Position numbers and translations under genes: made by a program. Source: an uncultured Actinomycetota bacterium (GTDB lineage Bacteria > Actinomycetota > Actinomycetes > JAHEKZ01). From it: a DNA stretch of 64,000 nucleotides. The notes beneath the pieces were generated by a model. The model did no database searches and had not been told where the DNA came from. It was given only the letters and a program-made list of their open reading frames with translations. Numbering within the stretch: position 1 is the stretch's first letter; every line of letters starts with the position of its first letter. Below are positions 3,610 through 28,380 of the stretch, piece by piece. The DNA lies in NCBI GenBank assembly GCA_963829525.1, contig CAWHIJ010000003.1, positions 2,327,833-2,391,832 of the forward strand. Direction: 5' to 3'.

Positions 3610-5298
3610 TCAGAAGTCGGGAGGCTCGGTGTACCCACCGAAGACTTCGCGCAGACTCGCACAGAGCTCTCCCACCGTGGCCTCCACGCGAACAGCGTCC
3701 AACATGGGTTCGACCACGTTGGTGTTGCTTCTTGCGGCATCTGCGAGATTGCGCAGACGCTCTTGCACGACGCGTTCGTCCCTCGCTGATCGTCTGCTTC
3801 GAAGGCGCTCGACCTGGTCGGTCTCCACCTCGCCAGGGATCTGCAGAACCTCCAGCGGCTCAGCCACCGAGTCGGTGTGGGCATTGACACCTACCACGCG
3901 ACGCTCACCGCTCTCGATGCTGCGTTGGTACCCGTCCGCAGCGTCAGCGATCCCGCGGGTGAACCAACCCGACTCGATGCCGGCAATGATCCCCCGGGTC
4001 ATCGACCCGTTGTCCCCGAGCCCCTCAATTTGGGCAAGGAGTGACTCGACCTCAGCCTCGACCCGATCGGTGGACGCCTCCACGAACCATGAGCCGCCCA
4101 GCGGGTCGATCACGGAAGCGACGCCGGTCTCCTCCAGCAAGACGTGCTGCGTCCGCAAGGCCACCTCGGCCGTCGCCTCAGTCGGGAGACCCAAGACCTC
4201 GTCGTGGGCGTTGGTGTGCAGAGAGTTGGTTCCACCGAGAACTGCGGCGAGCGCTTCGACCGCCGTGCGCACGACGTTGTTCTCCGGTTGCTGCGCGGTG
4301 AGCGAGACCCCGGCAGTCTGAGCATGGAAGCGCAGCCACTGTGCACGCTCGGTGGTGGCACCGTAGCGGTCGCGCATCCACCTGGCCCAGATCCTGCGGC
4401 CCGCACGAAACTTGGCGATCTCCTCGAAGAAATCGATGTGCGCGTCGAAGAAGAAGCTGAGGCGAGCGGCACAGTCGTCCACCGACAGGCCGCGGGCCAG
4501 TCCAAGCTCGACGTAGCCGAACCCATCGGCAAGCGTGAAGGCGAGCTCTTGGGCGGCGGTCGCCCCCGCCTCCCGTATGTGGTACCCGCTGATGCTGATC
4601 GGGTGGTAGCGCGGCATGTGCTGCTGCGTCCACTCGAGCAGGTCGCCGATGAGGCGCAGGTGTGGTGCAGGCGGGAAGATCCACTCCTTCTGGGCGATGT
4701 ACTCCTTGAAGATGTCGGTCTGCAGAGTTCCGCCGAGTGCAGATGGCGAGATCCCCGCGCGCTCTGCTGCGACGACGTAGATGCAGAAGAGCGGAAGGGC
4801 CGGTCCACTGATCGTCATCGACGTCGTCACCGACTCGAGCGGGATATCGCGCAGCAGTCGTTCCATGTCTTGTGCCGAGTCGATGGCCACACCACAGTGC
4901 CCGACCTCGCCAGCGGCCCTCGGGTCATCGGAGTCCAGGCCCATGAGCGTCGGCAGGTCGAAGGCGACGCTGATGCCGTCACCTCCGCTGGCCAGTAGCC
5001 GGTGAAAGCGGGTATTAGTGTCCGCTGCCGTTCCAAATCCGGCGAACTGCCGCACCGTCCAGGGCTTACCCAGGTAGCCAGTCGTGTAGATGCCGCGGGT
5101 GAACGGGTACTCCCCTGGCCAGCCGATGCGCTCGAAGCCAGGGGTGCCATCGGCGCCGAGGTCGTCTGGGCCATAGACCGGCTTGAGCGGGGAGCCGGAG
5201 AGCGTCGACCGGCCAGCTGCATCGGCCGAGGACCCAAGTTGCTTGGCCCAGCGATCCGCAAACCGCGCACGACCACGAGTGAGGTCGTCAGACTCCAT
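3610..5298 (-). CDS. icmA: acyl-CoA mutase large (catalytic) subunit without B12-binding domain, isobutyryl-CoA mutase IcmA-like
   Basis: 562 aa from ATG at 5298 with RBS gagaggag; methylmalonyl-CoA mutase TIM-barrel family blocks (FERIGWPGEYPFTRG, RQFAGFGTA, DSDDPRAAGEVGHCGVAIDS, ISGYHIREAGATAAQELAFTLADG); FAGFG instead of YAGFS is IcmA-like; no C-terminal Rossmann B12 domain. Confidence 0.8.
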   Translation of the reverse strand: MESDDLTRGRARFADRWAKQLGSSADAAGRSTLSGSPLKPVYGPDDLGADGTPGFERIGWPGEYPFTRGIYTTGYLGKPWTVRQFAGFGTAADTNTRFHRLLASGGDGISVAFDLPTLMGLDSDDPRAAGEVGHCGVAIDSAQDMERLLRDIPLESVTTSMTISGPALPLFCIYVVAAERAGISPSALGGTLQTDIFKEYIAQKEWIFPPAPHLRLIGDLLEWTQQHMPRYHPISISGYHIREAGATAAQELAFTLADGFGYVELGLARGLSVDDCAARLSFFFDAHIDFFEEIAKFRAGRRIWARWMRDRYGATTERAQWLRFHAQTAGVSLTAQQPENNVVRTAVEALAAVLGGTNSLHTNAHDEVLGLPTEATAEVALRTQHVLLEETGVASVIDPLGGSWFVEASTDRVEAEVESLLAQIEGLGDNGSMTRGIIAGIESGWFTRGIADAADGYQRSIESGERRVVGVNAHTDSVAEPLEVLQIPGEVETDQVERLRSRRSARDERVVQERLRNLADAARSNTNVVEPMLDAVRVEATVGELCASLREVFGGYTEPPDF

Positions 5299-5400
5299 CG
5301 CGCTCCTCTCGTGTCGAGGCCGCTCGGTGGCCAAACGTGTGGCAATCCGGCGTCCCCAGGCTATCGGTCGTACGGCACGCCCAGCCCGACTGGACAATCC

Positions 5401-5442
5401 TTCCCTACATTGTCTATCGTATCGATCGGCAATGTAGGAAAT
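5401..5442. promoter_or_regulatory. 12-bp imperfect inverted repeat (TTCCCTACATTG-N18-CAATGTAGGAAA) in the divergent icmA / ABC-transporter intergenic region
   Basis: read directly: 11/12 complementary arms flanking an 18-nt spacer containing the ATCGAT/CGATCG sub-palindromes, about 17 nt upstream of the transporter start codon. Confidence 0.3.
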
Positions 5443-5458
5443 ATCGAGAGGAATCGTT

Positions 5459-6572
5459 GATGCTTGGGATCAGGACCCGAACTCGCACCGCCCGATTGGC
5501 CGTCGGTATCGGCGCCATCGTCGCTGCAGTGACCATGACTGCATGCTCGAGTGACAGCGGGGGCGATACGAACGCATCTGACAGCGCATCTCCCGGTGCT
5601 GCCGAGCCCATCACCACGCTCCGTCTGGGGTACTTCCCCAACTTCACCCACGCGCCCGCTCTGATCGGTGTCCAAGAAGGCTTCTTCAAGGACTCCCTGG
5701 CCGAGCAGGACGTCACGGTGACTCCGACGATCTTCAACGCCGGCCCCGACGCCGTCACCGCGCTGCTGAGTAACTCGCTCGACATCGCCTACATCGGCCC
5801 CAACCCCACGGTGGCCGCTTACGTGCAGTCGCAAGGTGACGCGGTGCGCGTCATCGCTGGGGCTGCGTCGGGTGGAGCCGCCCTGGTCGTCAACAAAGAC
5901 ATCACGTCACCGGCCGACCTCAGCGGCAAGACCCTCGCCACCCCACAGCTCGGCAACACCCAGGACGTCGCTCTCCGCTACTGGCTGAAGCAGAATGACC
6001 TGGCCTCCAGCGAGGAAGGCGGCGACGTCACCATCGCGCCGCAGTCGAACTCCGAGGGCCTCACCGCCTTCGCCTCCGGGCAGATCGACGGCGCTTGGGT
6101 GCCAGAACCCTTCGTCTCGCAGTACGTCGCCGCAGGCGCAACGGTGCTGGTGAACGAGAAGGAGCTGTGGCCGAAGGGCCAGTTCGTCACGACCAACGTC
6201 ATCGTGCGCACCCAGTTCCTCGAGCAGTACCCGGACGTGGTCGACGCCTTCCTGGCCGCCCATGTGCAGGCGCTCGAGCTGATCAAGAAGGATCCCGAGA
6301 CTGCCAAGCAGGACGTCAACACCGCCCTCCAGGCGCTGACCGGGTCTCCCCTGGACACCAACATCCTCAACTCGGCGTGGAGCCAGGTCGAGTTCACCGC
6401 CGACCCGCTCAAGGCCACCCTGGTCGAGAGTGCGGCCCACGCGGTCGACGTCGGCCTCCTCGAGCAGAGCGCCATCGACGAGGCGGGCGGCAACTTCGAC
6501 GGCCTCTACGACCTCGACCCGCTCAACGCCGCGCTCAAGAAGGCCGGACTGGACCAGGTGTCGACCTCATGA
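5459..6572 (+). CDS. ABC transporter substrate-binding lipoprotein, NitT/TauT family (aliphatic sulfonate/taurine-type)
   Basis: ATG at 5459 preceded by gagga; signal peptide plus lipobox (AVTMTAC-SSDSGG); SsuA/TauA-like blocks (TLRLGYFPNFTHAPALIG); the longer ORF-track start at 5337 is upstream of the RBS. Confidence 0.75.
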
Positions 6573-7360
6573 GTGAGTCCCTCACTGCTGCGAGAGGGTC
6601 CCAGGTCCCTGGGGCCCTCTCGCCGACCCTTCGGGTGAAGGGTGTGAACAAGGTCTTCGGCCAGAACAACACCCGCACGGTCGCCCTGCAGGATGTCAAC
6701 CTCGACGTCTACCCCGGTGAGTTCGTGACCGTCGTCGGCGCTTCCGGCTGCGGCAAGAGCACGCTGCTCAACCTCGTGGCGGGTCTCGAGAAGCCGACCT
6801 CCGGCGAGCTCGAGGTGGGCGGACGTGTCGCCTTCATGTTTCAGGAGGCCACGTTGCTGCCATGGCTGACCGCGAAGAAGAACGTAGAACTCGCGCTGCG
6901 GCTGCACGGCGTCCCCAGGTCAGAGCGAGGCGATCGGGCACAAGAACTGCTCGAAACCGTTCGACTCGGTGACAAGGCCGATAAGCGTCCGCATGAGCTC
7001 TCCGGTGGGATGCGGCAGCGCGTCGCACTTGCCCGAGTTCTCGCGCAGGAGACCCGGATCGTGCTGATGGACGAGCCGCTCGGGGCACTCGATGCCATGA
7101 CTCGCGACCACATGCACGACGAGATCGAGCGGGTCTGGGAGAAGCACAAGTTCTGCGTGCTCTTCGTCACCCACAACATGCGCGAGGCCGTTCGTTTGGC
7201 CGATCGGGTGGTGCTCATGAGCAGCTCACCCGGTCGCGTCAAGTTGGACGAACGCATCACCATCCCGCGCCCGCGCCGGATCGACTCCGCCGAGGTGGCC
7301 CAACTCGCTGGCGAGCTCACCGAGGCGCTCAGAGAGGAAGTGGCAGCGCATGTCGCTTGA
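6569..7360 (+). CDS. ABC transporter ATP-binding protein (SsuB/TauB-like)
   Basis: Walker A GASGCGKST, signature LSGGMRQRVALARVL, Walker B IVLMDEP; ATGA start/stop overlap with the upstream binding-protein gene; the ORF-track extension to 6095 lies in the alternate frame of the preceding gene. Confidence 0.85.
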   Translation: MSESLTAARGSQVPGALSPTLRVKGVNKVFGQNNTRTVALQDVNLDVYPGEFVTVVGASGCGKSTLLNLVAGLEKPTSGELEVGGRVAFMFQEATLLPWLTAKKNVELALRLHGVPRSERGDRAQELLETVRLGDKADKRPHELSGGMRQRVALARVLAQETRIVLMDEPLGALDAMTRDHMHDEIERVWEKHKFCVLFVTHNMREAVRLADRVVLMSSSPGRVKLDERITIPRPRRIDSAEVAQLAGELTEALREEVAAHVA

Positions 7361-8216
7361 TGTCGCAGAACGTCCGGCCACGGGAGAGTCCGGACGTGAA
7401 AGCATGATCCCTCACCGACCTTCACCACTAGCCGCTGTCAGTCGCATCTGGTCGTGGACCTGGCCGAAGCTGATCGCGCTCGGCATCGTCCTTGGCGTCT
7501 GGGAGTTCCTGGTTCGGCTTGGCTGGAGAGCGGATTACATCTTCCCGCCGCCCACAACGGTGTTTCAGACTCTCGGCGACCTCATGGGCACCGAGCGCTT
7601 CTGGGACAGCGTCTCCACCACGATCCAGCGGGCGGCCATCGGTTACCTCTCAGCCCTCGTGATTGGTTCACTGATCGGCATCGCCGTGTCGCGCATTCGA
7701 ACTCTGCGATTGGGCGTTGGCTCACTGATTACTGGACTGCAGACGATGCCGTCGATCGCGTGGTTCCCGTTCGCCATCATCGTGTTTGGCGTCAACGAGA
7801 CGGCAATCTTCTTCGTCGTCGTCCTTGGGGCTGCACCGAGCATCGCCAACGGCATCATCTCCGGCATCGACCACGTCCCGCCGACCTTCGTCAGGCTCGG
7901 AAAGGTCATGGGAGCGAACAGCTTCACGCTCTATCGCCACATCGTGCTTCCCGCTGCGCTGCCGTCCTACGTTGCCGGGCTCAGCCAGGGATGGGCGTTC
8001 GCGTGGCGGTCGCTGATGGCCGGTGAGCTGCTCGTGTTCGCGGCGACGTCCGGGGCAATCGGCCAGAACCTCCAAGCCGCACGCGAGCTGATCAAGATGG
8101 ATGAGGTGATGGCCTGGATGATCGTCATCTTGGTGATCGGAATGGTCGCTGACACCATCTTCACCTCGATGTCGCGCAGCCTGAGGAGACGCCGTGGCCT
8201 CGCCATCGATGACTAG
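7350..8216 (+). CDS. ABC transporter permease (SsuC/TauC-like, BPD_transp_1)
   Basis: six predicted TM segments, translationally coupled (11-nt overlap) to the ATPase gene. Confidence 0.8.
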   Translation: MSLDVAERPATGESGRESMIPHRPSPLAAVSRIWSWTWPKLIALGIVLGVWEFLVRLGWRADYIFPPPTTVFQTLGDLMGTERFWDSVSTTIQRAAIGYLSALVIGSLIGIAVSRIRTLRLGVGSLITGLQTMPSIAWFPFAIIVFGVNETAIFFVVVLGAAPSIANGIISGIDHVPPTFVRLGKVMGANSFTLYRHIVLPAALPSYVAGLSQGWAFAWRSLMAGELLVFAATSGAIGQNLQAARELIKMDEVMAWMIVILVIGMVADTIFTSMSRSLRRRRGLAIDD

Positions 8217-8876: not shown

Positions 8877-9656
8877 ATGTCTCTCACCGAAGGCAGCCTT
8901 GCCTTCCTGCTCGCCATGGGTATCTCAGCGCTGACAGTTCCGGCTGGCGTGTCCGGCGCCGTCTTCCTCCTTCCGGCGCAACTGTCGCTCCTCGGCATGC
9001 CGAGTCCGGCTGTTACGCCCACGAACCTGCTCTACAACGTCATCGCCACACCGGCAGCCATTCTGCGGATGCGCCGCCATGGGCACACCTCGAGCGAGTT
9101 AGTGCGGCCGGTGCTGTACGGGGCCCTGCCCGGTGTCGCAGTTGGTGCGGTCCTTCGTACGACGGTGGCGTCCGGCGCTGGCGTGTTCCGCATGCTGGTG
9201 GGTCTGATGCTCGTCCTTCTCGGCACCCATCTGCTTCGGCGCGCCAGCCACGCCGACAGCCGACGCAGCCGCCACCCTTCGTCGCGAAGTCTGGTTCTCC
9301 TGGGGCTCGCGACGGGAACGATCGGTGGCCTCTACGGGATCGGCGGTGGGTCGATCCTCGCTCCCCTGCTCGCATTCATGGGGTTTGCCCTCGCCGATGT
9401 CGCGGTGGCGGCCCTGACGGTCACCTTCGCCACCTCGGTGGCCGGGGTGCTCGCCTTCACCCTGCTGGCACTGCTCGGTCGAACCGAAGCGGCTCCTGAC
9501 TGGGCCATCGGGACCATCCTCGGTCTCGGTGGGCTCGTCGGGGGCTACCTCGGAGCGATCTGCCAGCCCTACTTGCGAGAAACGACCCTCCGCAAAATGC
9601 TCGGCGGTCTCGCCCTGGCGGTGGGTGCGACCTATCTCGTCGTAGCGCTGACCTAG
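8877..9656 (+). CDS. TauE/SafE (TSUP) family sulfite/organosulfonate exporter-type membrane protein
   Basis: 259 aa, 7-8 TM, glycine-rich signature GGLYGIGGGSILAPLL typical of DUF81/TauE. Confidence 0.7.
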   Translation: MSLTEGSLAFLLAMGISALTVPAGVSGAVFLLPAQLSLLGMPSPAVTPTNLLYNVIATPAAILRMRRHGHTSSELVRPVLYGALPGVAVGAVLRTTVASGAGVFRMLVGLMLVLLGTHLLRRASHADSRRSRHPSSRSLVLLGLATGTIGGLYGIGGGSILAPLLAFMGFALADVAVAALTVTFATSVAGVLAFTLLALLGRTEAAPDWAIGTILGLGGLVGGYLGAICQPYLRETTLRKMLGGLALAVGATYLVVALT

Positions 9657-10558
9657 CGCTCCGTGGGTGCGAGCGTAGCTGCGGCGGTGTACGGATCGGT
9701 CTCCCCTGAGACAACGTCAGCAGCGAGGCGGTCCAGTTGTTGAGCAGCATCGCTGTTGTTCAGGCCAGACCGCACTGCGGCAACAACCAGCGCCTCGATC
9801 TCGGCCCTGGCACGGAACTGGCGGCGCACCCGCAGCTCGTCGTGGTCGACGAGATGGGCCCGGTGCCGGTCGATCTCATCAAGGAGCTCGTCGATCCCCT
9901 CTCCGCGCGAGGCGACCGTCTTGAGGATCGGCGGACGCCACTCGGGTGCATCTGCCCCCTCGACGTTGCGACCAATGGCCAGCATGGAGCGCAGCTCACG
10001 CGCGGTGACGTCAGCACCGTCACGGTCAGCCTTGTTGACGCAGTACACGTTGCCGATCTCAAGGATGCCGGCCTTTGCGGCCTGGATGGCGTCGCCCATG
10101 CCTGGGGCGAGCAGAACCACCGTGGTGTCGGCCAAACCTGCAACCTCGACCTCAGATTGTCCGACACCCACCGTCTCGATCAGGACGACGTCACATCCCG
10201 CAGCGTCGAGGACGCGCACCGCTTGAGGTGCAGCCGCAGCGAGGCCACCGAGATGACCGCGGGTGGCCATCGACCGGATGAAGACTCCCGGATCGGTGGC
10301 GTGCTCCTGCATGCGCACGCGGTCACCGAGCAACGCCCCACCGGTGAACGGCGAGGAGGGGTCGACCGCCAGCACTCCGACGCGGCGTCCGGATAGGCGC
10401 AGCGCCGTCACCAGTGCTGACGTCGTCGTCGACTTCCCAACGCCCGGCGCACCCGTCAGCCCCACCACGTGCGCACGCCCGGTGAGCGGCGCCAACAGGC
10501 GAGCCAACTCGACCAACAGCGGCGACTGGTCCTCAACCAGCGAGATCAGTCGCGCCAC
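9653..10558 (-). CDS. meaB: methylmalonyl-CoA mutase-associated GTPase MeaB (ArgK, G3E family)
   Basis: P-loop GAPGVGKST, switch/G motifs (DPSSPFTGGALLGDRVRM, ETVGVGQSE, NKADR) characteristic of MeaB/ArgK. Confidence 0.85.
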   Translation of the reverse strand: MARLISLVEDQSPLLVELARLLAPLTGRAHVVGLTGAPGVGKSTTTSALVTALRLSGRRVGVLAVDPSSPFTGGALLGDRVRMQEHATDPGVFIRSMATRGHLGGLAAAAPQAVRVLDAAGCDVVLIETVGVGQSEVEVAGLADTTVVLLAPGMGDAIQAAKAGILEIGNVYCVNKADRDGADVTARELRSMLAIGRNVEGADAPEWRPPILKTVASRGEGIDELLDEIDRHRAHLVDHDELRVRRQFRARAEIEALVVAAVRSGLNNSDAAQQLDRLAADVVSGETDPYTAAATLAPTER

Positions 10559-10623: not shown

Positions 10624-11808
10624 TCAGGCCGGCACCCGAAGGATGAGGGCGTCGCCTTGCCCGCCGCCGCCGCAGAGCGCCGCCGCACCAACGCCACCAC
10701 CACGTCGCTTTAACTCCAGCGCAAGCGTCAGCGCCAACCGGGCCCCACTCATGCCGATGGGGTGGCCGAGAGCGATGGCACCCCCGTTGGGGTTCACCTT
10801 CTCTTCAGAGATGCCCAGCACCCGAGCAGACACGATGCCGACAGCGGCGAACGCCTCATTGATCTCGAGAACGTCTAGGTCGTCGACCGACAACCCCTCA
10901 CGATCCAGCGCCTTCTTGATCGCGTTCGCTGGTTGCTCGTGAAGCGATGTGTCAGGTCCCGCCACGATGCCGTGCGCTCCGATCTCGGCCAGCCAGTTCA
11001 GGCCCAGCTGCTCGGCCTTCGCCTTGCTCATCACCACGACCGCTGCGGCTCCGTCAGAGATCTGCGATGCCGAACCGGCGGTGATCGTGCCATCCTTGCG
11101 GAACGCCGGACGCAGGCGTCCCAACGACTCGACCGTGGTGTCAGCGCGGATGCCCTCATCCTCGGCGAAGACAATCGGGTCACCACGACGCTGGGGGATT
11201 TCGACCGGAACGATCTCTTCGGCGAAGATGCCGTTCTTCTGGGCCACAGCCGCCCGCTGATGCGAGCGAGCGGAGAAGGCGTCCTGCTCCTGACGGGTCA
11301 ACGAGTAGCGCTCGTTGTAGCCGTCGGTGGACGATCCCATGGGCTCGCCGTCAAACGCATCGGTCAGGCCATCGAAGGCCATCGCGTCGACCAGCTGGGT
11401 GTTGCCGTACTTGAATCCCTCGCGGGACTTCGGCAAGACGTGCGGGGCGTTGGTCATCGACTCCATGCCACCAGCCACCACGATCTGAACCTCCCCGGCG
11501 CGTATCAGCTGGTCGGCGAGGGCGATTGCGTCCAGGCCGCTGAGACACACCTTGTTTATGAGGATCGAGGGCACCGTCATGGGGATCCCGGCATCGGCGG
11601 CTGCCTTGCGCACCGGCAGCTGGCCGGCACCGGCCTGCAGAACCTGGCCCATGATCACGTAGTCAACCTGGTCGCCGCCCACCCCCGAACGTTCAAGGGC
11701 CGCCTTGATGGCCACCGACCCCAGCTCCGCGGCAGTGAAGCCCTTGAGTGATCCCAGCAGGCGCCCCATTGGGGTACGCGCGCCGGTAACGATGACAGAC
11801 GAGGTCAT
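10624..11808 (-). CDS. acetyl-CoA C-acetyltransferase (thiolase II)
   Basis: start taken at internal ATG 11808 ([16 protein letters not shown]); thiolase N- and C-terminal blocks ([12 protein letters not shown]-terminal [10 protein letters not shown]). Confidence 0.85.
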
Positions 11809-12017: not shown

Positions 12018-12461
12018 ATGGCATCAGCCACCCTGACCAACCTGTTCACCGCGATCGACCACGTCGGCGTCGCCGTCAGCGACCTCGACGAGGCCATCGC
12101 CTACTACCGCGACGTCTTCGGCATGCAGCTGGCGCATGAGGAAAGCAACCCCGATCAAGGGGTGCGCGAGGCGATGATGAGCGTCGGTGACTCCGGCTCC
12201 TATGTGCAGCTGCTCGCGCCACTGTCGCCAGACTCACCGATCGGCAAGTTCCTCGACCGCAGTGGCCCGGGGCTGCAGCAGGTGGCCTATCGCGTCGATG
12301 ACATCGCGGCTGTCAGCGCGATCCTCCGTGAACGCGGTTGCCGGCTGCTCTACGACGAACCGCGTCCAGGCACGGCCGGCGCTGTGATCAACTTCGTCCA
12401 TCCCAAGGACGCCGGTGGCGTCCTGCTCGAACTCGTGCAGCCGCCGAAGTCGGCCCACTAG
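12018..12461 (+). CDS. mce: methylmalonyl-CoA (ethylmalonyl-CoA) epimerase, VOC/glyoxalase family
   Basis: 147 aa from ATG 12018 with RBS gagggga; IDHVGVAVSDLDEAIAYYRDVFG and FVHPKDAGGVLLELVQ blocks typical of Mce. Confidence 0.7.
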   Translation: MASATLTNLFTAIDHVGVAVSDLDEAIAYYRDVFGMQLAHEESNPDQGVREAMMSVGDSGSYVQLLAPLSPDSPIGKFLDRSGPGLQQVAYRVDDIAAVSAILRERGCRLLYDEPRPGTAGAVINFVHPKDAGGVLLELVQPPKSAH

Positions 12462-12498: not shown

Positions 12499-13845
12499 GT
12501 GCAGCCCATGCAGCAGATCATTGACGCCATCACCTCAAGCGAGGCGTCGTCTGACGACTTCGCGGCTCTCGAGGTTCCCGAGTCGTACACCGGGGCGCTT
12601 CTCCGCCAGGAGGACGAGAAGATGTTCGAGGGCGTGCCAACCTTCGACCGCGACCCGCGCAAGTCGCTGCGTATCGAGGACGTTCCGGTCCCCGAGGTCG
12701 GACCCGGCGAGGCCCTCATCGCGGTCATGGCCTCGTCGATCAACTACAACACCGTCTGGTCGAGCATCTTCGAACCCGTGTCTACCTTCGGATTCCTGCG
12801 CCGCTACGGACGCACGTCTCCCCTGGCCAAGCGTCATGACCTGCCCTACCACGTCATCGGGTCCGACCTGTCCGGCGTTGTTCTGCGCACCGGTCCAGGC
12901 GTCCACGTCTGGCACCCAGGCGACGAAGTCGTCGCACACTGCCAGTCGGTCGAGCTGGAGAGCCCGCTCGGTCACAACGACACCATGCTCGACCCCGAGC
13001 AGCGGATCTGGGGCTTTGAGACAAACTTCGGTGGGCTTGCGCAGCTGGCTTTGGTCAAGTCGAACCAGCTGCTCGAAAAGCCGGCCCACCTCAACTGGGA
13101 GGAAGCCGCGTCGCCCGGTCTGGTCAACAGCACCGCTTACCGCCAGCTGGTCAGTCGCAATGGCGCGGGCATGAAGCAGGGGGACATCGTCCTGATCTGG
13201 GGAGCGAGCGGTGGCCTCGGCTCCTACGCCACTCAGATGGCGCTCAACGGAGGAGCCACGCCTGTCTGCATCGTGTCGTCCCCTGAGAAGGCCGAGATCG
13301 TCCGCAGCATGGGCGCCGATCTCATCATCGACCGCAGCGCAGAGAGCTACCGGTTCTGGAAGGACGAGTCCACCCAGGATCCGTCGGAGTGGAAAAGATT
13401 CGGTAGCAAGATTCGCGAGCTCACCGGTGGCGACGACGTCGACATCGTCTTCGAACACCCTGGACGGGAGACCTTTGGCGCGAGCGTCTACGTCGCGCGC
13501 AAGGGCGGGACGATCGTCACGTGCGCGTCGACCTCCGGTTACATGCACGAGTACGACAACAGGTACTTCTGGATGAACCTTAAGCGCATTGTCGGATCAC
13601 ACTTTGCCAACTACCGCGAGGCATGGGAGGCCAACCGCCTCATCCAGCGTGGCAAGATCCACCCGACGCTGTCGAAGTCCTACCCCCTCGTCGAGACCGG
13701 TCAGGCCGCCTTCGAGGTGCACCGCAACATGCACCAGGGAAAGGTCGGCGTGCTGTGCCTGGCGCCTGAAGAAGGGCTCGGAGTCCGTGACCCCGAACTT
13801 CGTGCCAAGCACCTGGACGCGATCAACCGCTTCCGCGAGAAGTAG
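12499..13845 (+). CDS. ccr: crotonyl-CoA carboxylase/reductase
   Basis: near-colinear similarity to Streptomyces Ccr (DPRKSLRIEDVPVPEVGPGEALIAVMASSINYNTVWSSIFEP...HPGRETFGASVYVARKGGTIVTCASTSGYMHEYDNRYFWM); GTG start at 12499 is 5 nt after ggagg. Confidence 0.9.
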   Translation: MQPMQQIIDAITSSEASSDDFAALEVPESYTGALLRQEDEKMFEGVPTFDRDPRKSLRIEDVPVPEVGPGEALIAVMASSINYNTVWSSIFEPVSTFGFLRRYGRTSPLAKRHDLPYHVIGSDLSGVVLRTGPGVHVWHPGDEVVAHCQSVELESPLGHNDTMLDPEQRIWGFETNFGGLAQLALVKSNQLLEKPAHLNWEEAASPGLVNSTAYRQLVSRNGAGMKQGDIVLIWGASGGLGSYATQMALNGGATPVCIVSSPEKAEIVRSMGADLIIDRSAESYRFWKDESTQDPSEWKRFGSKIRELTGGDDVDIVFEHPGRETFGASVYVARKGGTIVTCASTSGYMHEYDNRYFWMNLKRIVGSHFANYREAWEANRLIQRGKIHPTLSKSYPLVETGQAAFEVHRNMHQGKVGVLCLAPEEGLGVRDPELRAKHLDAINRFREK

Positions 13846-13851
13846 GTCGGC

Positions 13852-14592: not shown

Positions 14593-14607
14593 GGTGTTGA
14601 GGACCTC

Positions 14608-17557: not shown

Positions 17558-18462
17558 TCGGCACCGGTGTCTGTGCATCGGCGACGAAAGCCGGTGACCC
17601 CGGTGCCTCGTAGGTGTAGAAGCCGCGTCCGGTCTTGCGACCCTTCACGCCGGCCGTCACCATCTGCTTGATGATCGGAGCAGGGGCGTGGAGGCGGTCA
17701 CGCGTCTGCTTGTACATCGTGTCGAGGATCTCGTAGGCGGTATCGAGCCCGATCAGGTCGAGCAGCGCGAGGGGTCCCATCGGAAGGCCGCAGCCCAGCT
17801 TCATCGCGGCATCGATGTCTTCACGCGTCGCGTAGCGCTGCTCATACATCGCAGCGGCATGGTTGAGGTAGCCGAAGAGAAGCGCGTTGGCGATGAAGCC
17901 TGCCTTGTCGCCCACGACGACGGGAACCTTGCCGAGTCGCTCGCTGAGCGCTTTGACGTCGTCGATCACCTGGGCGTCAGTGACGACGGTGCGGATGACC
18001 TCGACGAGCTTCAGAACCGGAGCCGGGTTGAAGAAGTGCATGCCGACCACCTGGGCCGGCCGATGCGTCGCCACCGAGATCTCGGTGACCGACAACGACG
18101 AGGTGTTTGTGGCGAGGATCGCGTCGGGGGCCGTGATCCGGTCGAGCTCGGCGAAGATCTGCTGCTTGAGCTCAAGCTTCTCTGGTACTGCCTCGACCAC
18201 CAGGTGGCAGTCCGCCAGGTCCTCCAGCGACGAGGTAAAGGTGATCCGGTCAAAGATCGCCTGCTTCTCCTCTTCCGAGAGCTTGCCGCGCTTGACCGCT
18301 CGCGAGGTGGACGTCTCGACGTGCTCGATGCCACTGGGCAATGCGCGACTCGTCACGCTCGACGGCGACGACCTCGAGGCCGTTGCGTGCGAACACTTCC
18401 GAGATGCCCGCTCCCATGGTGCCGAGGCCGACAACCCCGACCCGGGTGAACTCACGTGCCAT
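17478..18462 (-). pseudogene. second tandem 3-hydroxybutyryl-CoA dehydrogenase paralog, reading frame broken by a 1-nt frameshift near 18345
   Basis: N-terminus (VGVVGLGTMGAGISEVFARNGLEVVAVE) is in the ORF 18250-18462, the rest (IEHVETSTSRAVKRGK...GRKTGRGFYTY) is in the +1 frame; the 3' end overlaps the next hbd gene by 80 nt; may be a sequencing artefact. Confidence 0.7.
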
Positions 18463-18587
18463 GACCTACTCCTGTGCTGCAACCTGCCGGGACTGGGCCC
18501 GGAGCGAGAGCGCGTCAGGCATGACGCCGCCACGACGATCCTCCCACCCCCACGTCAGGTTGGCTGGACCCCGGGTAGCGTGATGGC

Positions 18588-20052: not shown

Positions 20053-20679
20053 TCAGCCGACGCCATTCCGTTCGGCCCAGACGGCAGCTTGGGTCCGGTC
20101 GAGCACCCCGATCCGTTGAAAGCACGACGTCAGGTGGGCCTTGACCGTCCGCTCGGTTATCCCCAGGCGTCGGGCGATCTGCTTGTTCGACAGTCCCTGC
20201 CTCACGAGCCCAAGCACCTCGGTCTCGCGGGCAGTGAGTTCGACCCTGACCCGTGATGGCTTCTCTGCGCGTGCCGATAGAAGCTCGCGGGCCGCGCGCG
20301 GATGCAGCGGCGACTCCCCTCTGGCAGCAGCCCTGACTCCCGCAAGAATCTCGTCAGGGGAGGCGTCCTTGAGCAGGTAGCCGACGGCCCCGGCGTCGAT
20401 CGCTCCTACGATCCGGTCACGGTCGGAGAACGAGGTGACGATCACCACTGCAATCTCGGGGTGGGCCTCACCGAGTGCCGCAGTCGCCGCGACGCCGTCC
20501 ATCACCGGCATCTGCAAGTCCATCAGAATCACATCAGGGTTCATGAGTTCAGCCAGCTCGATGGCTTCCGCTCCGTTGACGGCGAGCCCCACGACTTCGA
20601 TATCGGAGGTGCTAGCCAGCAGCTGCTGCAGGCCAGCGCGCAGCATCGAGTGGTCGTCGACAACCAGGACCGAGATCAC
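20053..20679 (-). CDS. two-component response regulator, NarL/FixJ (LuxR HTH) family
   Basis: receiver domain (VLVVDDHSMLR...D...LMDLQMP) plus C-terminal LuxR HTH (LTARETEVLGLVRQGLSNKQIARRLGITERTVKAH). Confidence 0.85.
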   Translation of the reverse strand: MISVLVVDDHSMLRAGLQQLLASTSDIEVVGLAVNGAEAIELAELMNPDVILMDLQMPVMDGVAATAALGEAHPEIAVVIVTSFSDRDRIVGAIDAGAVGYLLKDASPDEILAGVRAAARGESPLHPRAARELLSARAEKPSRVRVELTARETEVLGLVRQGLSNKQIARRLGITERTVKAHLTSCFQRIGVLDRTQAAVWAERNGVG

Positions 20680-22121
20680 CTCGCCGGCACCTCCAGCGTC
20701 ACACGGGTGCCCTCCCCTACCGCCGACTCAACCGCCAACCTGCCGCCCGCCTCCGCGGCGAGGTCGCGGAGACCACGAAGCCCGAAACTCTCCGGTACAA
20801 CAGCGGCGTTTGGGTCGAAGCCTTGACCGTCATCGGTGACGACGAGCTTTGCGACCGCAGGCGTCCCCTCGATGACGACGCAAACGTCGAGCCGCTCCGG
20901 AGACGCGTGACGCAGCGAGTTTCGAACGCATTCCTGGGCGGTTCGCCATATCAGCGCAGTCGCATTGTCCGAGAGCTGATCGGTGCCCCGGATGCCGACA
21001 TGCACGTCGACGTCAGCTTGCTCAGCTTGTGCCACGAGATCCTGCAGGGCCGCCCCGAGACCGGCGGCTTGAAGCTGTGGCGGGTAGATCTCGACCAGAA
21101 GAGAACGGAGCGCGAGCAGACTACGGCGCACCGCTGAAGCTAGCCGCTCAAGGTCGGCTTGTAGGCGAGTGCGGTCAAGATCGATGTCCGGGGAGGCGTC
21201 TCTGGCGATCCCGGCAAGGGCGAAGGACGTGCCGGCAAGATCCTGCACAACACCGTCATGGAGGTCGCGTGCAACCCGCCGACGCTCGGCGTCCGAGGCG
21301 TCGGCTGCCATGACCAGGAGCCGCTCACGGTCGGCAGCCGCCGCGTCGGCTCGACGGGAAAGAAGCCAGACGAGGGGGGTGGTCACCAGGAGGAAGATCA
21401 GCAAGCCACCCACCGTGAGCGGTCGAAAGAGTCCGAAGAGCTCGTCGGTGCGCGCCTGGAGGTTGTCGTCGGTCAGGTAGAGCTCGAAGAGCAACGGTTG
21501 GCCGCCAGGGGCCGATACCTTCGTGTACACCTCGAGCACTCGTCCAAGCTGTTGGTCGTAGGAGTTCTCGGACCTACTGAGGTCGGAGACCTCGGCATCC
21601 GAGCCGCCATTGTCGAGCACCGCCCGTTCGTCATCGCCAAGCGGAAACGATTCGTCAATCAACCTGGGCTCATCGGAGTAGACAATTCGTCCATCTGCGT
21701 CCCAGACCTTGACGCGTACCACGTCCCCACCCATGACCCTGCCCCGAATAAGCCGGTCAAAACGGTCGAGGCCGCCTGCCTCCGTGTCGAGCAGCCCCGA
21801 GGAGAGCGCCGGCTCAACGACCGTGTCAGCTAGGAGCTCGGTTGTCGCACGTGCGTCCTCGATCGCCTGTTGTTGTGCTAGCCGTTCGCCCATCACGCCC
21901 GTAAGCCAAGCCAGGAACACCGCAACGACCAGTCCAACCACGACGAACTGCACGACCGGCCGTTGCCAGACCGGTCGTGCAGCTCGCTTGGTTGATGCAG
22001 TGCCCACGGGGGCGGCCTCCGAAAGGGAATGCTGGCTAGAACCCGAGGCTACCTCTGCAGGTCTCACCGGTCGCCGGGTTAGTAGCGCGCCAGCCAATAC
22101 GGTCAGTGCCCGAGAGATCAA
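20676..22121 (-). CDS. sensor histidine kinase (HisKA_3 / NarX-DesK type)
   Basis: two N-terminal TM segments, H-box ERRRVARDLHDGVVQDL, HATPase_c C-terminus; 4-nt overlap with the regulator gene; the true start may be downstream of 22121. Confidence 0.8.
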   Translation of the reverse strand: MISRALTVLAGALLTRRPVRPAEVASGSSQHSLSEAAPVGTASTKRAARPVWQRPVVQFVVVGLVVAVFLAWLTGVMGERLAQQQAIEDARATTELLADTVVEPALSSGLLDTEAGGLDRFDRLIRGRVMGGDVVRVKVWDADGRIVYSDEPRLIDESFPLGDDERAVLDNGGSDAEVSDLSRSENSYDQQLGRVLEVYTKVSAPGGQPLLFELYLTDDNLQARTDELFGLFRPLTVGGLLIFLLVTTPLVWLLSRRADAAAADRERLLVMAADASDAERRRVARDLHDGVVQDLAGTSFALAGIARDASPDIDLDRTRLQADLERLASAVRRSLLALRSLLVEIYPPQLQAAGLGAALQDLVAQAEQADVDVHVGIRGTDQLSDNATALIWRTAQECVRNSLRHASPERLDVCVVIEGTPAVAKLVVTDDGQGFDPNAAVVPESFGLRGLRDLAAEAGGRLAVESAVGEGTRVTLEVPAR

Positions 22122-22629: not shown

Positions 22630-24664
22630 CTAGAGGTCGGCCACGACAAGGCCGTGTGCCCGACGGATCTCTGCCACGATACGCAGCATGATGTCGTCGA
22701 TCGTGTAGTCCTTCGGTGTAAAGACAGCAGCAACGCCCAGAGCTTCGAGAGCCGCGGAGTCGGACTCAGGAATGATGCCGCCAACGACAAGAGGCACATC
22801 GCTCATGCCCGCGGCCCTGATCCGAGACAGCACCTCCGGCACAAGTTCCATGTGTGAGCCCGAGAGCACCGACAAGCCAACAACGTGGACGTCTTCCTCC
22901 ACCGCCGCGGCGGCGATCTGCTCTGGTGTCAGCCGGATCCCCTGGTAGACCACCTCGAACCCTGCATCACGTGCACGCACCGCGATCTGCTCGGCTCCGT
23001 TGGAGTGCCCGTCGAGTCCGGGCTTGCCGACGAGAAACCTCAGCCGGCCCCCGAGTTCAGCCGCCGTCTTCTCGACGGCCGCCCTAACCGCCTCGCCGGA
23101 TACGGAGTCCCCAACGGACGCGGTCTGCGACGAGACTCCTGTTGGCGCGCGGTACTCGCCAAACACGCCCCGCAGCGCGTCCGCCCATTCGCCTGTCGTC
23201 ACGCCGGTCCTGGCACATGCCAAGCTCGCCGGCATCAAGTTCTCACCCGAAGCCGCATCCTTGCTCAGTTTCTCCAAGGCAACGGCTACCGCAACGTCGT
23301 CCCGTTCGGCTCGCCAACTGGCGAGAGCCTCGACTGCACGCTCCTCGACGTCGGCAGCGACGCGTCAGGACCGCGCTGTCGAGGTCGGACAGCAACGGGT
23401 TCGGCTCGGTCGTCGTGAACCGGTTGAGTCCGACAACGACAGCATCTCCCGACTCGATGGCACGACGCCGCTCGGCGTGGGACTGCACGAGGGCTGTCTT
23501 CATGTAGCCGGACTCAACAGCAGCCAGGGCACCGCCGAGCCGCTCGATTCGCGCCATCTCGTCTCGCGCGCCCACCACAAGCTCGCCGACCTTGGCGGCC
23601 ACGACCGGGGAGCCATCGAAGAGGTCGCCGTACTCCAACAGGTCGGATTCAAAGGCCAGCACCTGCTGCATGCGGAGCGACCATTGCTGGTCCCAGGGCC
23701 GAGGCAGGCCGAGAGCTTCGTTCCAGGCAGGCAGTTGAATGGCTCGAGCCCTGGCATCCTTGGACAGTGTGACCGCCAGCATCTCGAGCATGATGCGCGG
23801 CACGTTGTTCTCTGGTTGAGCCTCCGTAAGCCCGAGAGAATTGACCTGCACGCCGTACCGGAACCGCCGCTGCTTCGCGTCCGTGATGCCATAGCGATCT
23901 GCGGTGATCTCGTCCCACAGCTCCACGAAGGCACGCATCTTGCACATCTCCTCGACGAAACGCACCCCAGCGTTGACGAAGAACGAGATGCGCTGGACCA
24001 CTTCGCCGAAGCGTTCTGGCGGCACCTGGCCGGAATCGCGAACGGCGTCGAGCACGGCAATCGCTGTACTCAGGGAGAACGCCAGCTCTTGGACCGGGGT
24101 GGCACCGGCCTCCTGCAGGTGATAGCTGCAGATATTCGTCGGGTTCCATTGGGGAACGTTTGCCACCGTGTAGGTCACCATGTCGGTGATCAGCCGCAGC
24201 GATGGGCCGGGCGGGAAGACATACGTCCCGCGCGACAGGTACTCCTTGATGATGTCGTTCTGTGTCGTTCCCTGAAGTGCGGCTGGATCGACGCCCTGTT
24301 CCTCGGCCACCGCGATGTAGAGGGACAACAGCCACATAGCCGTGGCGTTGATCGTCATCGACGTATTCATCTCGTCAAGCGGGATGCCCTCCATCAGCGA
24401 GCGCAGGTCGCCGAGGTGGGTGACCGGAACGCCGACCTTGCCGACCTCTCCGCGCGCCAGCTCGTCGTCGGGATCGTAGCCGGTCTGCGTCGGCAGGTCG
24501 AAAGCGATCGAGAGCCCCGTCTGCCCCTTGGCCAAGTTCTTGCGAAAGAGCGCGTTCGACGCAGCAGCAGAGGAGTGTCCGGCGTACGTGCGCATAACCC
24601 AGGGTCGGGTCGTGCTCCCGTCCGCTGACTCACTGCGAGTAGGGGTCGATGGGTCGTTCGCCAT
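22630..24664 (-). pseudogene. meaA: ethylmalonyl-/methylmalonyl-CoA mutase family protein with fused C-terminal B12-binding domain (MeaA/Ecm-like), interrupted by a 1-nt frameshift near 23355
   Basis: catalytic domain (MRTYAGHSSAAASNALFRKNLAKGQTGLSIAFDLPTQTGYDPDD...) in ORF 23243-24664; the linker and B12 domain (DVEERAVEALASWRAERDD...ENLMPASLACARTGVTTGEWADALRGVFGEYRA...GKPGLDGHSNGAEQIA) continue in the +1 frame to 22630; the YAGHS signature is MeaA-like from memory; the frameshift may be an assembly error. Confidence 0.75.
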
Positions 24665-24713
24665 CCAAGCCTCCGTGAGGTCCCGGTGGATTCGACCCTC
24701 AGCCTAGCCGAGC

Positions 24714-25016
24714 CTAGCTAGCTTCCGCGGCGACCCGATCCAAGTTCAGCACGCGGTGCAGACGGGTGACAGCGAGGATTCGCAGCATTCGCGGCTGCGG
24801 GTCGCAGAGCACCAGCCGGACACCGCACTGACGAGCTCGGCGATGCGCAGCGACCAGCACACCGAGCCCGGCGACGTCGAGACTGACAACTGCGGACGCA
24901 TCCACTGACAGGTCACCTTCGGGGATCGAGTCGAGCGCAACCTGTAGTGCGTAGCGGACATCTCCGGACGTCGTCGCGTCCACACGGGATGGCAACGTCA
25001 CGTCGCATGGGCGCAT
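24714..25016 (-). CDS. STAS-domain protein (anti-sigma-factor antagonist-like)
   Basis: SpoIIAA-like pattern LSVDASAVVSLDVAGLGVLVAAHRRARQCGVRLVLCDPQPRMLRILAVTRL; start assumed at ATG 25016. Confidence 0.55.
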   Translation of the reverse strand: MRPCDVTLPSRVDATTSGDVRYALQVALDSIPEGDLSVDASAVVSLDVAGLGVLVAAHRRARQCGVRLVLCDPQPRMLRILAVTRLHRVLNLDRVAAEAS

Positions 25017-25170: not shown

Positions 25171-26016
25171 TCAGTAACGGTAAAACCCCTGGCCGGTCTT
25201 TCGACCGAGGGCGCCCCGAGCGACCATCTGCCGCAGCAACGCGGGCGCTGCGAAGGTCTCCCCCGGGGTCTCGGCCGCGATGTTGTCCGCAGCGCTGACC
25301 ATGACGTCGATCCCCACGAGGTCGATCGTTTCCAGCGGCCCCATTGCGTGTCCGAACCCGAGTCGGCAAGCGGTGTCGACGTCCTCGGCGGTGGCCACCC
25401 CGGACTCGACCAAGCGCGCGGCCTCGACGATGAGAGTCGTGATGAGGCGGGTCGTCACGAATCCGGCAATGTCGCGGTTGACAACTACACAGGTCTTCCC
25501 GACCCGCTCAGCGAACCCGCGCGCAATTTCCAGCGTTTCGTCACTGGTCTCGACTCCACGTACCAGTTCGCAGAGTGACATGACAGGGACTGGGGAGAAG
25601 AAGTGAGTGCCGACCACCTGCTGCGGTCGCCGCGTCACCTCCGCCAGCTGGGTAATGGGCAGTGCTGACGTATTGGTGGCGAGCACGGCGTGGGGTCCGA
25701 GAATCGGCTCCAGCGCACGGAAGACCTCTTGCTTGACCTCGAGGCGCTCGAAGACCGCCTCGATGGCGATCGAGGCTGGGGCGAGGTCTCCGAGCGACGT
25801 CGTCGGTGTGATGCGTGCCATCACGACCGCCTCCTCTTCACTGGACGTCCCCTTGGCGGCGAACTTGGCCAGCGACGTCGAGATGCCCTGGATCCCCCGC
25901 TCCAGGGAGGTGCCGTCAACGTCATACAGGTACACCTTGTACCCGGCCTGCGCCGCTACCTGAGCAATCCCGGCCCCCATGAGACCTGCTCCGACGACTC
26001 CGATCACGTCTTCCAC
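25171..26016 (-). CDS. hbd: 3-hydroxybutyryl-CoA dehydrogenase (third paralog)
   Basis: Rossmann IGVVGAGLMGAGIAQVAAQAGYKV, HFFSPVPVMSLCELV, C-terminal GRKTGQGFYRY; GTG 26016 preceded by ggaagga is preferred over the ORF-track start 26070. Confidence 0.8.
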   Translation of the reverse strand: MEDVIGVVGAGLMGAGIAQVAAQAGYKVYLYDVDGTSLERGIQGISTSLAKFAAKGTSSEEEAVVMARITPTTSLGDLAPASIAIEAVFERLEVKQEVFRALEPILGPHAVLATNTSALPITQLAEVTRRPQQVVGTHFFSPVPVMSLCELVRGVETSDETLEIARGFAERVGKTCVVVNRDIAGFVTTRLITTLIVEAARLVESGVATAEDVDTACRLGFGHAMGPLETIDLVGIDVMVSAADNIAAETPGETFAAPALLRQMVARGALGRKTGQGFYRY

Positions 26017-26428: not shown

Positions 26429-26439
26429 CAGCGTCTGCC

Positions 26440-27759
26440 GGTGGGCGGGGTCAGCCGAAACGCTCCGGCCGGGTCGTCCTCTCGGACGATCTTGGCGCCG
26501 AGCACTCGGAGTTGCTCGTCGAACTTGGGGTATCCACGGTCGATGTGGTGGATCTCGCTGACGATGGTCTCGCCCTCGGCCACCAAGCCAGCGATCACGA
26601 GCCCGGCACCAGCGCGAATATCGGGGGTCGTGACCGGCGCACCCGAAAGCAGGGGACGCCCACGCACGACCGCGTGGTGGCCGTCGGTGCGGATATCAGC
26701 ACCAAGTCGGGCAAGCTCGTTGACAAACGAGAACCGGGATTCATAGACGTTCTCCGTCACCATCGCAGTGCCGGAGGCCACAGCGTTGAGGGCCAGGGCC
26801 ATGGGAAGCAGGTCCGTCGGAAATCCAGGGAATGGCAGCGTCACTGCATCTACAGCCGTGGGACGGCGATCCATCATGACTCGGAATCCATCGTGAACTC
26901 GGTCGACAGTGGCGCCTGCCGTCACCAGTTTGTCGAGGGCAATCTCAAGGTGTGCCGGATTCGCGTTGTGCACTGTCACATCACCGAGCGTCATCGCCGC
27001 AGCCATCGCCCACGTACCGGCCACGATGCGGTCCGCGACGGTCGCGTGAGAGACCGGTTGCAACGAGTCGACGCCGACGATGACGAGCGTCGAAGTTCCG
27101 GCACCTTCAATCTGGGCTCCCATGTGGCCCAGCATCACGCAGAGGTCGACGATCTCTGGCTCGCGAGCCGCATTGTCGATCTCGGTACAGCCGTCTGCCA
27201 GGACCGCAGCCATCACGAGGTTCTCGGTCGCCCCAACACTAGGAAAATCAAGCCATATCGTGGCACCGGTCAGCTGCTTGGCCTTAGCCACGATGAAACC
27301 GTGCTCGTTCTCAACCGTCGCGCCCATCTTGAGCAGACCGGCGATGTGGAAGTCGAGAGGACGTGAGCCGATGGCGTCGCCACCCGGTAGTGCAACGTCA
27401 GCTTCGCCGGTACGGGCCAACAGTGGGCCCAGAACCGCAATGGACGCTCGCATCCGCCGCACGAGGTCGTAGTCAGCACGGTGCTCAACCTTTTGCGGGA
27501 CATCGATCGTGACGGTTGCCGCATCGCGGTCACGGTGCACACCGCATCCGAGTCGTCGAAGAAGCTCGGACATGATGGTGACGTCGAGGATGTCGGGCAC
27601 CTCGCTCAGTGTCGTTACGCCGGGAGCAAGCAGTGCCGCGGCCATCAGCTTGAGGACCGAGTTCTTGGCCCCGGTGACCTGTACGTCACCTGCGAGGCGA
27701 GCGCCACCGGTCACCCGAAACCGCTGCGGGCGCGCGATGGCTGCATTGGCGGTCTCCAC
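26440..27759 (-). CDS. murA: UDP-N-acetylglucosamine 1-carboxyvinyltransferase
   Basis: MurA blocks throughout ([57 protein letters not shown]); the uninterrupted ORF runs to 26149 (536 aa) but similarity ends near 26460, so the 3' end is approximate and a terminal indel is suspected. Confidence 0.85.
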
Positions 27760-27795
27760 GCGCCCATCGTAGGCGGTCCCCTTAGGGTGGCCGAC

Positions 27796-28380
27796 ATGGT
27801 GAATCTCACGCGCATCTACACCCGGACCGGCGACGACGGCACGACCGCCCTAGGCGACATGACCCGGGTCAGCAAGAACGACCAACGCTTGGTGGCCTAC
27901 GCCGACGTCGACGAGGCAAACTCGGCGATCGGAGTGGTGGTGGCCACTCCGGGGCTCGACTCCCAGATTGCCGCCCTGCTGACCCGCATCCAGAACGACC
28001 TCTTCGACGTTGGGGCAGACCTCTGCACCCCCGTCATCGAGGACCCTGAGTTCCCCCCGCTGCGAGTTGAGCATGAGTACATCGAGCGGCTTGAGGCCGC
28101 CTGCGACCAGTACAACGACCTCCTCGAGCCACTTCGATCCTTCGTCCTGCCCGGGGGAACCATGGCCTCGGCGCACCTTCACGTAGCCCGCACCGTTGTT
28201 CGTCGTGCGGAGCGCAGCACCTGGGCTGCGCTGGCCGAGCACAGCGACACGATGGGGCCGCTAGCAGCTACCTATCTGAACCGGCTCAGCGACCTGCTCT
28301 TCATCTTGGGCCGCGTGGCCAACTTGCCAGCACACGGTGGCGGCGGCGACCTGCTGTGGAAGCCGGGCGGGGAGCGCTAG
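27796..28380 (+). CDS. pduO: PduO-type ATP:cob(I)alamin adenosyltransferase
   Basis: 194 aa from ATG 27796; hallmark N-terminus [21 protein letters not shown] and DLCTP...LRSFVLPGG blocks. Confidence 0.85.

Follow-up and report, generated by a model that had tools for sequence, protein, structure and literature searches.

Upper ethylmalonyl-CoA pathway genes in a conserved actinomycete gene order, with frame breaks that are most likely assembly errors

In a 64-kb stretch of DNA from an uncultured Actinomycetota bacterium (contig CAWHIJ010000003.1, positions 2,327,833 to 2,391,832; the whole stretch is called the window here), genes for the upper part of the ethylmalonyl-CoA (EMC) pathway and for its adenosylcobalamin (AdoCbl) cofactor are scattered among housekeeping genes, and some of them are broken in their reading frames. 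We consider it very probable that this is an ordinary, vertically inherited actinomycete stretch, in which the upper EMC route and the B12-cofactor genes stand in a widely common order, and that the breaks are most likely errors of the assembly. Gene identities come from NCBIfam and Pfam profile scans, the NCBIfam scores being read against curated cut-offs. The gene for the ethylmalonyl-CoA mutase, ecm, was compared with 80 ecm loci taken from GTDB species genomes with 10-kb flanks, on which the proteins of the window were placed by tblastn. Close relatives are represented by short-read metagenome contigs from four samples (L086-L089), with about 96.5% DNA identity to the window, and further relatives by L081-L084, with about 92-95%. 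The two mutases were placed in families by identity levels, curated hidden Markov model (HMM) cut-offs and operon context instead of a formal phylogeny.

The initial annotation had taken the pathway genes for an unusual concentration, a view that the comparison does not bear out: the clustering is conserved synteny, an ordinary gene order beside the ATP-synthase/murA region, and it recurs in many actinomycete families. Two layouts were found among the 80 ecm loci. In 43 of them no mcl, mch or mcd gene stands beside ecm, and most of these read atpD-atpC-PduO-murA, then ecm, nucS, a double 3-hydroxybutyryl-CoA dehydrogenase gene (double hbd), two hydrolase genes, ccr-epi (carboxylase/reductase and epimerase) and thl-meaB (thiolase and mutase chaperone). 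Their 10-kb flanks hold atpC in 32 of the 43 and nucS in 29, and the PduO-type adenosyltransferase (ATR) gene lies upstream of ecm in 36, in the same slot between atpC and murA that had been pointed out for the window; mycobacteria presumably share this atpC-ATR-murA arrangement (Rv1314c). The taxa with this layout include Frankiaceae, Geodermatophilus, Pseudonocardiaceae (Lentzea, Kutzneria, Saccharothrix), Terrabacter, Knoellia, Janibacter, Nocardioides, Aeromicrobium, a Micromonosporaceae metagenome-assembled genome (MAG) and many other MAGs. One locus, L002, reads atpD-atpC-PduO-murA-hbd3-ecm-nucS-double hbd-two hydrolases-ccr-epi-thl-meaB, with L016 (Terrabacter) in nearly the same order, and in L085, whose IcmA is 87% identical to that of the window, double hbd-hydrolases-ccr-epi-thl-meaB-Rrf2-icmA is contiguous. 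The remaining 37 loci are of the Streptomyces type, double hbd ... ccr-ecm-mcl-mch-mcd, and all belong to Streptomyces or Kitasatospora except for one unclassified Actinomycetes MAG (L047). In Streptomyces and Kitasatospora, the genes after ecm encode a CitE-like lyase, a MaoC hydratase and an acyl-CoA dehydrogenase. The features of the window that matter here are as follows.

3610-5298, minus strand: acyl-CoA mutase large subunit without a B12 domain, IcmA type (TIGR00641, 650 bits)
9653-10558, minus strand: MeaB, G-protein chaperone for AdoCbl mutases (TIGR00750 equivalog, 343 bits against a cut-off of 241)
10624-11808, minus strand: acetyl-CoA C-acetyltransferase, thiolase (TIGR01930, 443 bits against a cut-off of 241; NF006086, 508 bits)
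12018-12461, plus strand: methylmalonyl/ethylmalonyl-CoA epimerase (TIGR03081 equivalog, 149.5 bits against a cut-off of 115)
12499-13845, plus strand: crotonyl-CoA carboxylase/reductase, Ccr (TIGR01751 equivalog, 590 bits against a cut-off of 379)
13852-14592, minus strand: alpha/beta hydrolase between double hbd and ccr (PcaD-like family matches; syntenic in L002, L008, L010, L013, L017, L085 and L088)
15681-16442, minus strand: second alpha/beta hydrolase-like gene, beside double hbd (weak Abhydrolase_6 match; syntenic in relatives)
16685-18462, minus strand: tandem double 3-hydroxybutyryl-CoA dehydrogenase gene, in three frames here (two complete Hbd units)
17537, minus strand: extra base, second frameshift of double hbd, in the inter-unit linker (1 extra nt relative to L088)
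18346, minus strand: extra base, first frameshift of double hbd (1 extra nt relative to L086 and L088)
22630-24664, minus strand: ethylmalonyl-CoA mutase (MeaA/Ecm) with fused B12 domain, in two open reading frames (ORFs) here (TIGR00641 N-terminal, TIGR00640 C-terminal)
23362, minus strand: extra base breaking ecm (GACG[C]GTCGCT in the window; the bracketed base is absent from L086-L089)
25171-26016, minus strand: single-unit 3-hydroxyacyl-CoA dehydrogenase, Hbd3, between murA and ecm (Hbd subfamilies at 286-290 bits, below their cut-offs)
27787-28380, plus strand: PduO-type cob(I)alamin adenosyltransferase in the atpC-murA slot (TIGR00636, 172 bits against a cut-off of 108)

The profile scans bear out the identities first proposed for the ICM-type mutase, MeaB, thiolase, epimerase, Ccr, ECM/MeaA and PduO genes. 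The gene meaB lies downstream of the thiolase gene on the same strand, and the epimerase gene lies directly upstream of ccr, divergent from thl-meaB; in L085 the thiolase has 394 aa and the epimerase 147 aa. The adenosyltransferase measures 197 aa in L086-L089, and those of relatives carry the Pfam domain Cob_adeno_trans. The genes that follow ecm in Streptomyces and Kitasatospora match the published emc operon, ccr-ecm-mml-mch-mcd; in S. tsukubaensis this operon was disrupted and growth with acetate as the only carbon source was examined (PMC4606968). Compared with this Streptomyces operon, the window has a similar Ccr (about 75-79% identical) and Ecm (70-74%) with the same diagnostic residues, and in both layouts the tandem double hbd is found a few kb away from ccr. 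However, the window has ccr and ecm on different strands at a distance of 9 kb, ecm adjoins murA and the PduO adenosyltransferase gene, ccr is paired with the epimerase gene and divergent from thl-meaB, and the lyase, hydratase and dehydrogenase genes are not nearby.

As to the broken genes, most likely single bases were inserted in error during assembly and the pathway is not decaying, because the relatives are intact, exact gene lengths can be restored, and beyond each break the differences are still about 90% synonymous. At the sites that they cover, L086-L089 have intact genes, encoding an Ecm of 677 aa, a double Hbd of 591 aa, a MurA of 435 aa and a NucS of 225 aa. Every coding-region indel relative to the contigs of the relatives consists of one extra G or C in the window, at 23362 (ecm), 18346 and 17537 (double hbd), 26462 (murA), 19200 (nucS) and 210 (the 5' end of a DUF885 gene). 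The base at 26462 stands 10 nt before the murA stop codon and lets the ORF run on to 26149, a false extension of about 100 aa, while that at 19200 truncates the C-terminus of NucS, so that the NucS_C profile is matched over positions 1-104 of 124 only. Likewise, the diaminopimelate decarboxylase gene lysA (49448-50730, minus strand) is spread over three frames, matching its profile at positions 9-171, 176-266 and 272-416, and the pieces imply two +1 shifts near 50222 and 49935. With the extra bases taken out, ecm is exactly 2034 nt and double hbd 1776 nt long, the lengths of these genes in the relatives. Downstream of the breaks and in the original frame, synonymous and non-synonymous differences stand at 37:4, 32:3 and 20:3, next to 50:4 in the intact atpA; all the shifts go in the same direction, and there are no in-frame stops or deletions. 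Nor are the breaks specific to the pathway, because the end of murA, lysA, nucS and the DUF885 gene are affected as well. In the organism itself, the Ecm and double Hbd enzymes are probably intact. Two more extra bases, at 18527 and 5398, were seen in non-coding DNA by comparison with contigs of about 92-96.5% identity.

It would be improbable, on these figures, that the frameshifts are real and mark a strain losing the EMC route (ecm, double hbd) together with lysA and the NucS C-terminus by recent pseudogenisation. Such a history would account for five breaks in three genes, two of them hit twice, which is rare for random errors, and for the fact that no site lies in a long homopolymer. It is harder to square with four contigs of about 96.5% identity in which the genes are whole, with lesions that reach beyond the pathway, are all +1 G or C and leave exact gene lengths once the base is removed, and with downstream differences that still respect the original frame. 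GCGTC or GACGC occurs within 8 nt of 5 of the 10 insertion sites, where 7.5% would be expected for random positions; this motif was chosen post hoc and the enrichment is only suggestive, but the extra bases may come from a systematic sequencing error tied to the motif, such as one at a site of methylation. We also considered a mutator phenotype following from the nucS lesion, and dropped it in view of lesions that are all insertions with the signature of an artefact. More remote still is the idea that the cluster is a metabolic island, horizontally acquired and inserted into a housekeeping region. Pathway and housekeeping genes are indeed interleaved, and small transporter inserts vary between strains, but GC content (62-67%) and skew are uniform along the window, no mobile-element genes were seen in the profile scans of the window, and the same order is found across many families of Actinomycetes; we rejected this origin on composition and synteny. 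The rest of the window is housekeeping in content (the atp operon, glyA, prfA, rho, thrB, thrC, hom, lysA and argS).

The mutase with a fused B12 domain had been placed at 22630-24664 as MeaA/Ecm-like, and the family assignment stands, while the single open frame does not: the gene reads as two ORFs (23243-24664 and 22630-23277) parted by the insertion at 23362. Repaired, it encodes 677 aa and is 98% identical to an intact relative of the same length (P0121), 70-76% identical to its orthologues in the 80 species-genome loci, and 70-74% identical to those of Streptomyces, whose genes sit between ccr and mcl-mch-mcd. Judged by these levels and by its scores, the product is a mutase of the MeaA/Ecm clade and not a canonical methylmalonyl-CoA mutase (MCM): on the canonical MCM equivalog NF006944, P0121 reaches 534 bits where the cut-off is 876, and the match of the enzyme to MCM structures is only 411 bits. 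This, with the orthology to Streptomyces MeaA, keeps the protein out of the canonical MCMs, among which a different placement could have put it. Aligned to 1REQ_A, the enzyme reads RTYAGHS, LSRGTY and SYHLQEAGA, retaining the equivalents of Tyr89, Arg207 and His244; we take the first two to be carboxylate-binding and the third to be catalytic, as in MCM. At the substrate-specificity positions singled out by the initial annotation, the enzyme has YAGHS and the Arg207 equivalent. At the C-terminus, GLDGHSNG aligns to the B12 domain of MCM, and the DxHxxG motif is present. Close homologues are named 'protein meaA' or '(2R)-ethylmalonyl-CoA mutase' in their sources, and an exact-sequence look-up with a 473-aa fragment of the enzyme matched no record. 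Conversion of (2R)-ethylmalonyl-CoA to (2S)-methylsuccinyl-CoA is the predicted activity.

The product of 12499-13845 is, as its alignment indicates, a genuine Ccr with all four residues of the CO2 pocket, and not an ordinary enoyl reductase lacking carboxylase residues. HMMER aligns it over its full length to the Ccr chains of S. collinus and K. setae (3HZZ, 6OWE, 6NA3) at 830-838 bits, with the majority of positions identical by eye, and it passes the equivalog cut-off. Its residues N84, F173, E174 and H368 correspond to N81, F170, E171 and H365 of K. setae at a constant offset of 3, and Asn81, Phe170, Glu171 and His365 are reportedly the residues of the CO2 pocket (Stoffel and colleagues, 2019).

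Three 3-hydroxybutyryl-CoA dehydrogenase paralogs had been proposed, and the gene at 25171-26016 is indeed of the Hbd type, but those at 16685-17557 and 17478-18462 are not separate genes. They are the two halves of one gene, which lie in one frame with no intervening stop in 54 of the 54 relatives that have the tandem arrangement, and in all of these the gene is a few kb from ccr. When the fused protein of Terrabacter L016 (592 aa) is aligned to the window, its match runs through three successive frames (18462-18358, 18356-17565 and 17536-16688), and in L085 (1591-3366) and L088 (9352-11127) the gene is called as one of 591 aa, with 3HCDH_N-3HCDH occurring twice. Against NF005875 the double protein scores 680 bits in 2 stretches, and both units keep the GxGxxG, (N/T)TSS and HFFNP motifs. 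We found no PDB entry with this tandem architecture. Hbd3, by comparison, has 281 aa in L086-L089 and orthologues of about 60% identity in the same slot in L002, L008, L010, L054 and L075. Its motifs are AGFVTTRL and HFFSP, in place of the GFI(A/V)NAL and HFFNP that the double Hbd has in each of its units. The Asn of GFI(A/V)NAL, which is Thr in Hbd3, is presumably catalytic in the family, and Hbd3 may differ from the double Hbd in substrate or activity.

The second mutase (3610-5298), described at the outset as IcmA-like and without a B12 domain, proved to be both: it has 562 aa, matches TIGR00641 only, and its relatives at 96%, 88% and 87% identity have 561-562 aa. In alignment with the structures of MCM and of 2-hydroxyisobutyryl-CoA mutase (HCM), RQFAGFG places a Phe at the Tyr89 position of MCM and IAQKEW a Gln at the Arg207 position, so that the specificity region reads FAGFG with Gln; we take this Phe/Gln pair to be the signature of isobutyryl-CoA mutase (ICM). 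The protein is on this count a putative ICM-type large subunit, and isobutyryl-CoA mutase would be its activity. It resembles IcmA/IcmB of S. cinnamonensis and the fused IcmF (4XC6) in its Phe/Gln pair and, as a large subunit, in lacking a B12 domain, and the MeaB-type G protein nearby parallels the fused G domain of IcmF. On the other hand, its score against the mutase domain of IcmF is only 269 bits, and neither the 64-kb window nor L081 or L085 gave a second B12-binding domain (IcmB). In S. cinnamonensis, too, the small-subunit gene is presumably not adjacent to that of IcmA.

Taken together, the gene set suggests the following route, in which the activities and the flux through them are what we infer from families, residues and gene order. 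The thiolase would form acetoacetyl-CoA, which the tandem double Hbd, Hbd3 or both would reduce to 3-hydroxybutyryl-CoA; a crotonase encoded elsewhere would yield crotonyl-CoA, and Ccr would convert this by reductive carboxylation into (2S)-ethylmalonyl-CoA. The epimerase would then supply the (2R) form, and the AdoCbl-dependent Ecm (MeaA) would rearrange it to methylsuccinyl-CoA. Together with a small subunit encoded at an unlinked site, the ICM-type large subunit could interconvert isobutyryl-CoA and butyryl-CoA and so feed the same C4 pool. The PduO adenosyltransferase would make AdoCbl, and MeaB would gate its loading and repair on the mutases. The initial annotation had seen in these two proteins a B12 cofactor loading system, and both pass their equivalog cut-offs; a MeaB/MMAA and ATR/MMAB system has been described for AdoCbl mutases (PMC10356863, PMC10481361). 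The pair in the window differs from that system in that the client mutases here would be Ecm and ICM rather than, or besides, MCM. Thiolase, C4 reduction, Ccr, epimerase and an AdoCbl-dependent Ecm are likewise features of the EMC pathway of Rhodobacter sphaeroides and Methylobacterium extorquens, which is reportedly the work of Erb, Alber and Fuchs, whose papers are among the references of PMC2847961. The reductase of the proteobacterial route is (R)-specific (PhaB) and its crotonase an (R)-crotonase, whereas the window carries dehydrogenases of the (S)-type Hbd family, and the lower pathway was not found in the window.

Several points weigh against this reading. In this assembly ecm is without an intact reading frame, a break that we judge to be an artefact, and the ICM call rests on two diagnostic positions. 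Genes for crotonase, mcd, mch, mcl, icmB and mutAB are not in the window, nor within 10 kb of ecm in the 43 non-Streptomyces loci; profile scans of the 64 kb agree with the initial annotation on the first four, and no acyl-CoA dehydrogenase, MaoC hydratase or CitE-type lyase was found anywhere in them. An Rfam scan of the window gave no cobalamin riboswitch, and the divergent intergenic regions between thl and epi, which differ greatly in length and gave no alignment, showed no conserved regulatory site. Functional coupling beyond synteny, co-regulation included, would be an inference, because no riboswitch or shared regulatory element was found. The genes also failed as an operon, since some are on one strand and some on the other, with transporters, regulators, nucS and murA in between; only thl-meaB, epi-ccr and hbd3-STAS-ecm form small contiguous units.

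It is a real, if doubtful, possibility that the genes are neighbours by inherited order and form no single module, thl and hbd serving general beta-oxidation, butyrate or polyhydroxybutyrate metabolism, ICM serving valine catabolism or polyketide and fatty-acid starter units, and ATR and MeaB serving mainly an MCM encoded elsewhere. The two-strand arrangement and the many interruptions speak for it, the latter comprising a thioredoxin-TPR protein, an ABC transporter, Rrf2, TauE, two alpha/beta hydrolases and a CaCA exchanger, with NucS, a two-component system, a STAS protein and murA also interspersed. So does the variation of the transporter inserts between close relatives: in L085, Rrf2 alone separates meaB from icmA, the ABC transporter and TauE genes that flank Rrf2 in the window (5337-8216 and 8877-9656) being absent there, and the CaCA cation/proton exchanger gene at about 14594-15711, which stands between the two conserved hydrolase genes, is an insert when compared with L088, 92-94% identical in this comparison. 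The lower EMC genes are missing from the window and from the 10-kb ecm flanks of the 43 non-Streptomyces loci, and no common regulatory RNA or site was found, which points the same way. Yet double hbd and ccr remain within about 1.3-4 kb of each other in both types of synteny, 35 of the 37 Streptomyces-type loci included, epi stays paired with ccr and thl with meaB from family to family, and for ccr, epi and ecm, which are retained, no role beyond ethylmalonyl-CoA metabolism is known. A different identity for the B12-domain-less mutase, as HCM (HCM/RCM), would link 2-hydroxyisobutyrate to 3-hydroxybutyryl-CoA and explain the presence of several Hbd genes. Its best match among solved structures is in fact the HCM large subunit 4R3U (473 bits, against 449 for MCM), it shares the two-subunit architecture of HcmAB, and Hbd genes and a MeaB-like chaperone are nearby. 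This remains very unlikely, however: the HCM-defining positions Ile90 and Asp117 are Phe and Ala here (the latter within SVAFD), and no 2-hydroxyisobutyric acid (2-HIBA)-CoA ligase (hcl), small subunit or GntR regulator is adjacent; such genes make up the hcl-hcmAB-meaH operon described in PMC7176365. We rejected the HCM identity on pocket residues and operon context, and keep to the reading of an ordinary stretch with an upper EMC route.

Some further observations concern the neighbouring genes. A gamma-butyrobetaine-hydroxylase-like/TauD dioxygenase of 371 aa is encoded at 28386-29501 (minus strand), between atpC and the PduO adenosyltransferase gene. The STAS anti-sigma-factor-antagonist gene at 24714-25016 (minus strand) precedes ecm on the same strand by about 50 nt, so that the order is hbd3-STAS-ecm, and a STAS gene beside ecm was found in none of the 80 more distant genome loci. 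The sensor histidine kinase gene at 20676-22007 (minus strand) shows 12 synonymous and 14 non-synonymous codon differences from the 96.5% identical relative, whereas its neighbours show about 9:1, which suggests relaxed or diversifying selection on the kinase. The only hits of the Rfam scan were an L31-Actinobacteria ribosomal-protein leader at 43497-43545 (minus strand), upstream of a small rpmE-like ORF, and a tRNA gene at 62551-62622 (plus strand).

For the annotation of this genome, the assembly's systematic single-base insertions would create false pseudogenes in ecm, double hbd, lysA and nucS, as well as a false extension of murA, and call for caution. The stretch itself holds little in the way of discovery: its enzymes all belong, as close orthologues, to families already described, and public databases contain near-identical proteins, some of which bear the name ethylmalonyl-CoA mutase or MeaA. 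What the comparison does show is that the EMC genes of actinomycetes come in two organisations, the Streptomyces operon and a split layout anchored at atp-ATR-murA. More speculatively, and at long odds, the double Hbd may be a dedicated entry enzyme of the EMC route, so far uncharacterised, whose units might differ in stereo- or substrate specificity or one of which might be regulatory, and atp-PduO-murA-ecm may be a second, split EMC organisation of non-Streptomyces actinomycetes, in which the lower half is encoded or solved differently. The conserved tandem protein next to ccr, apparently uncharacterised, is the most interesting item of the neighbourhood.

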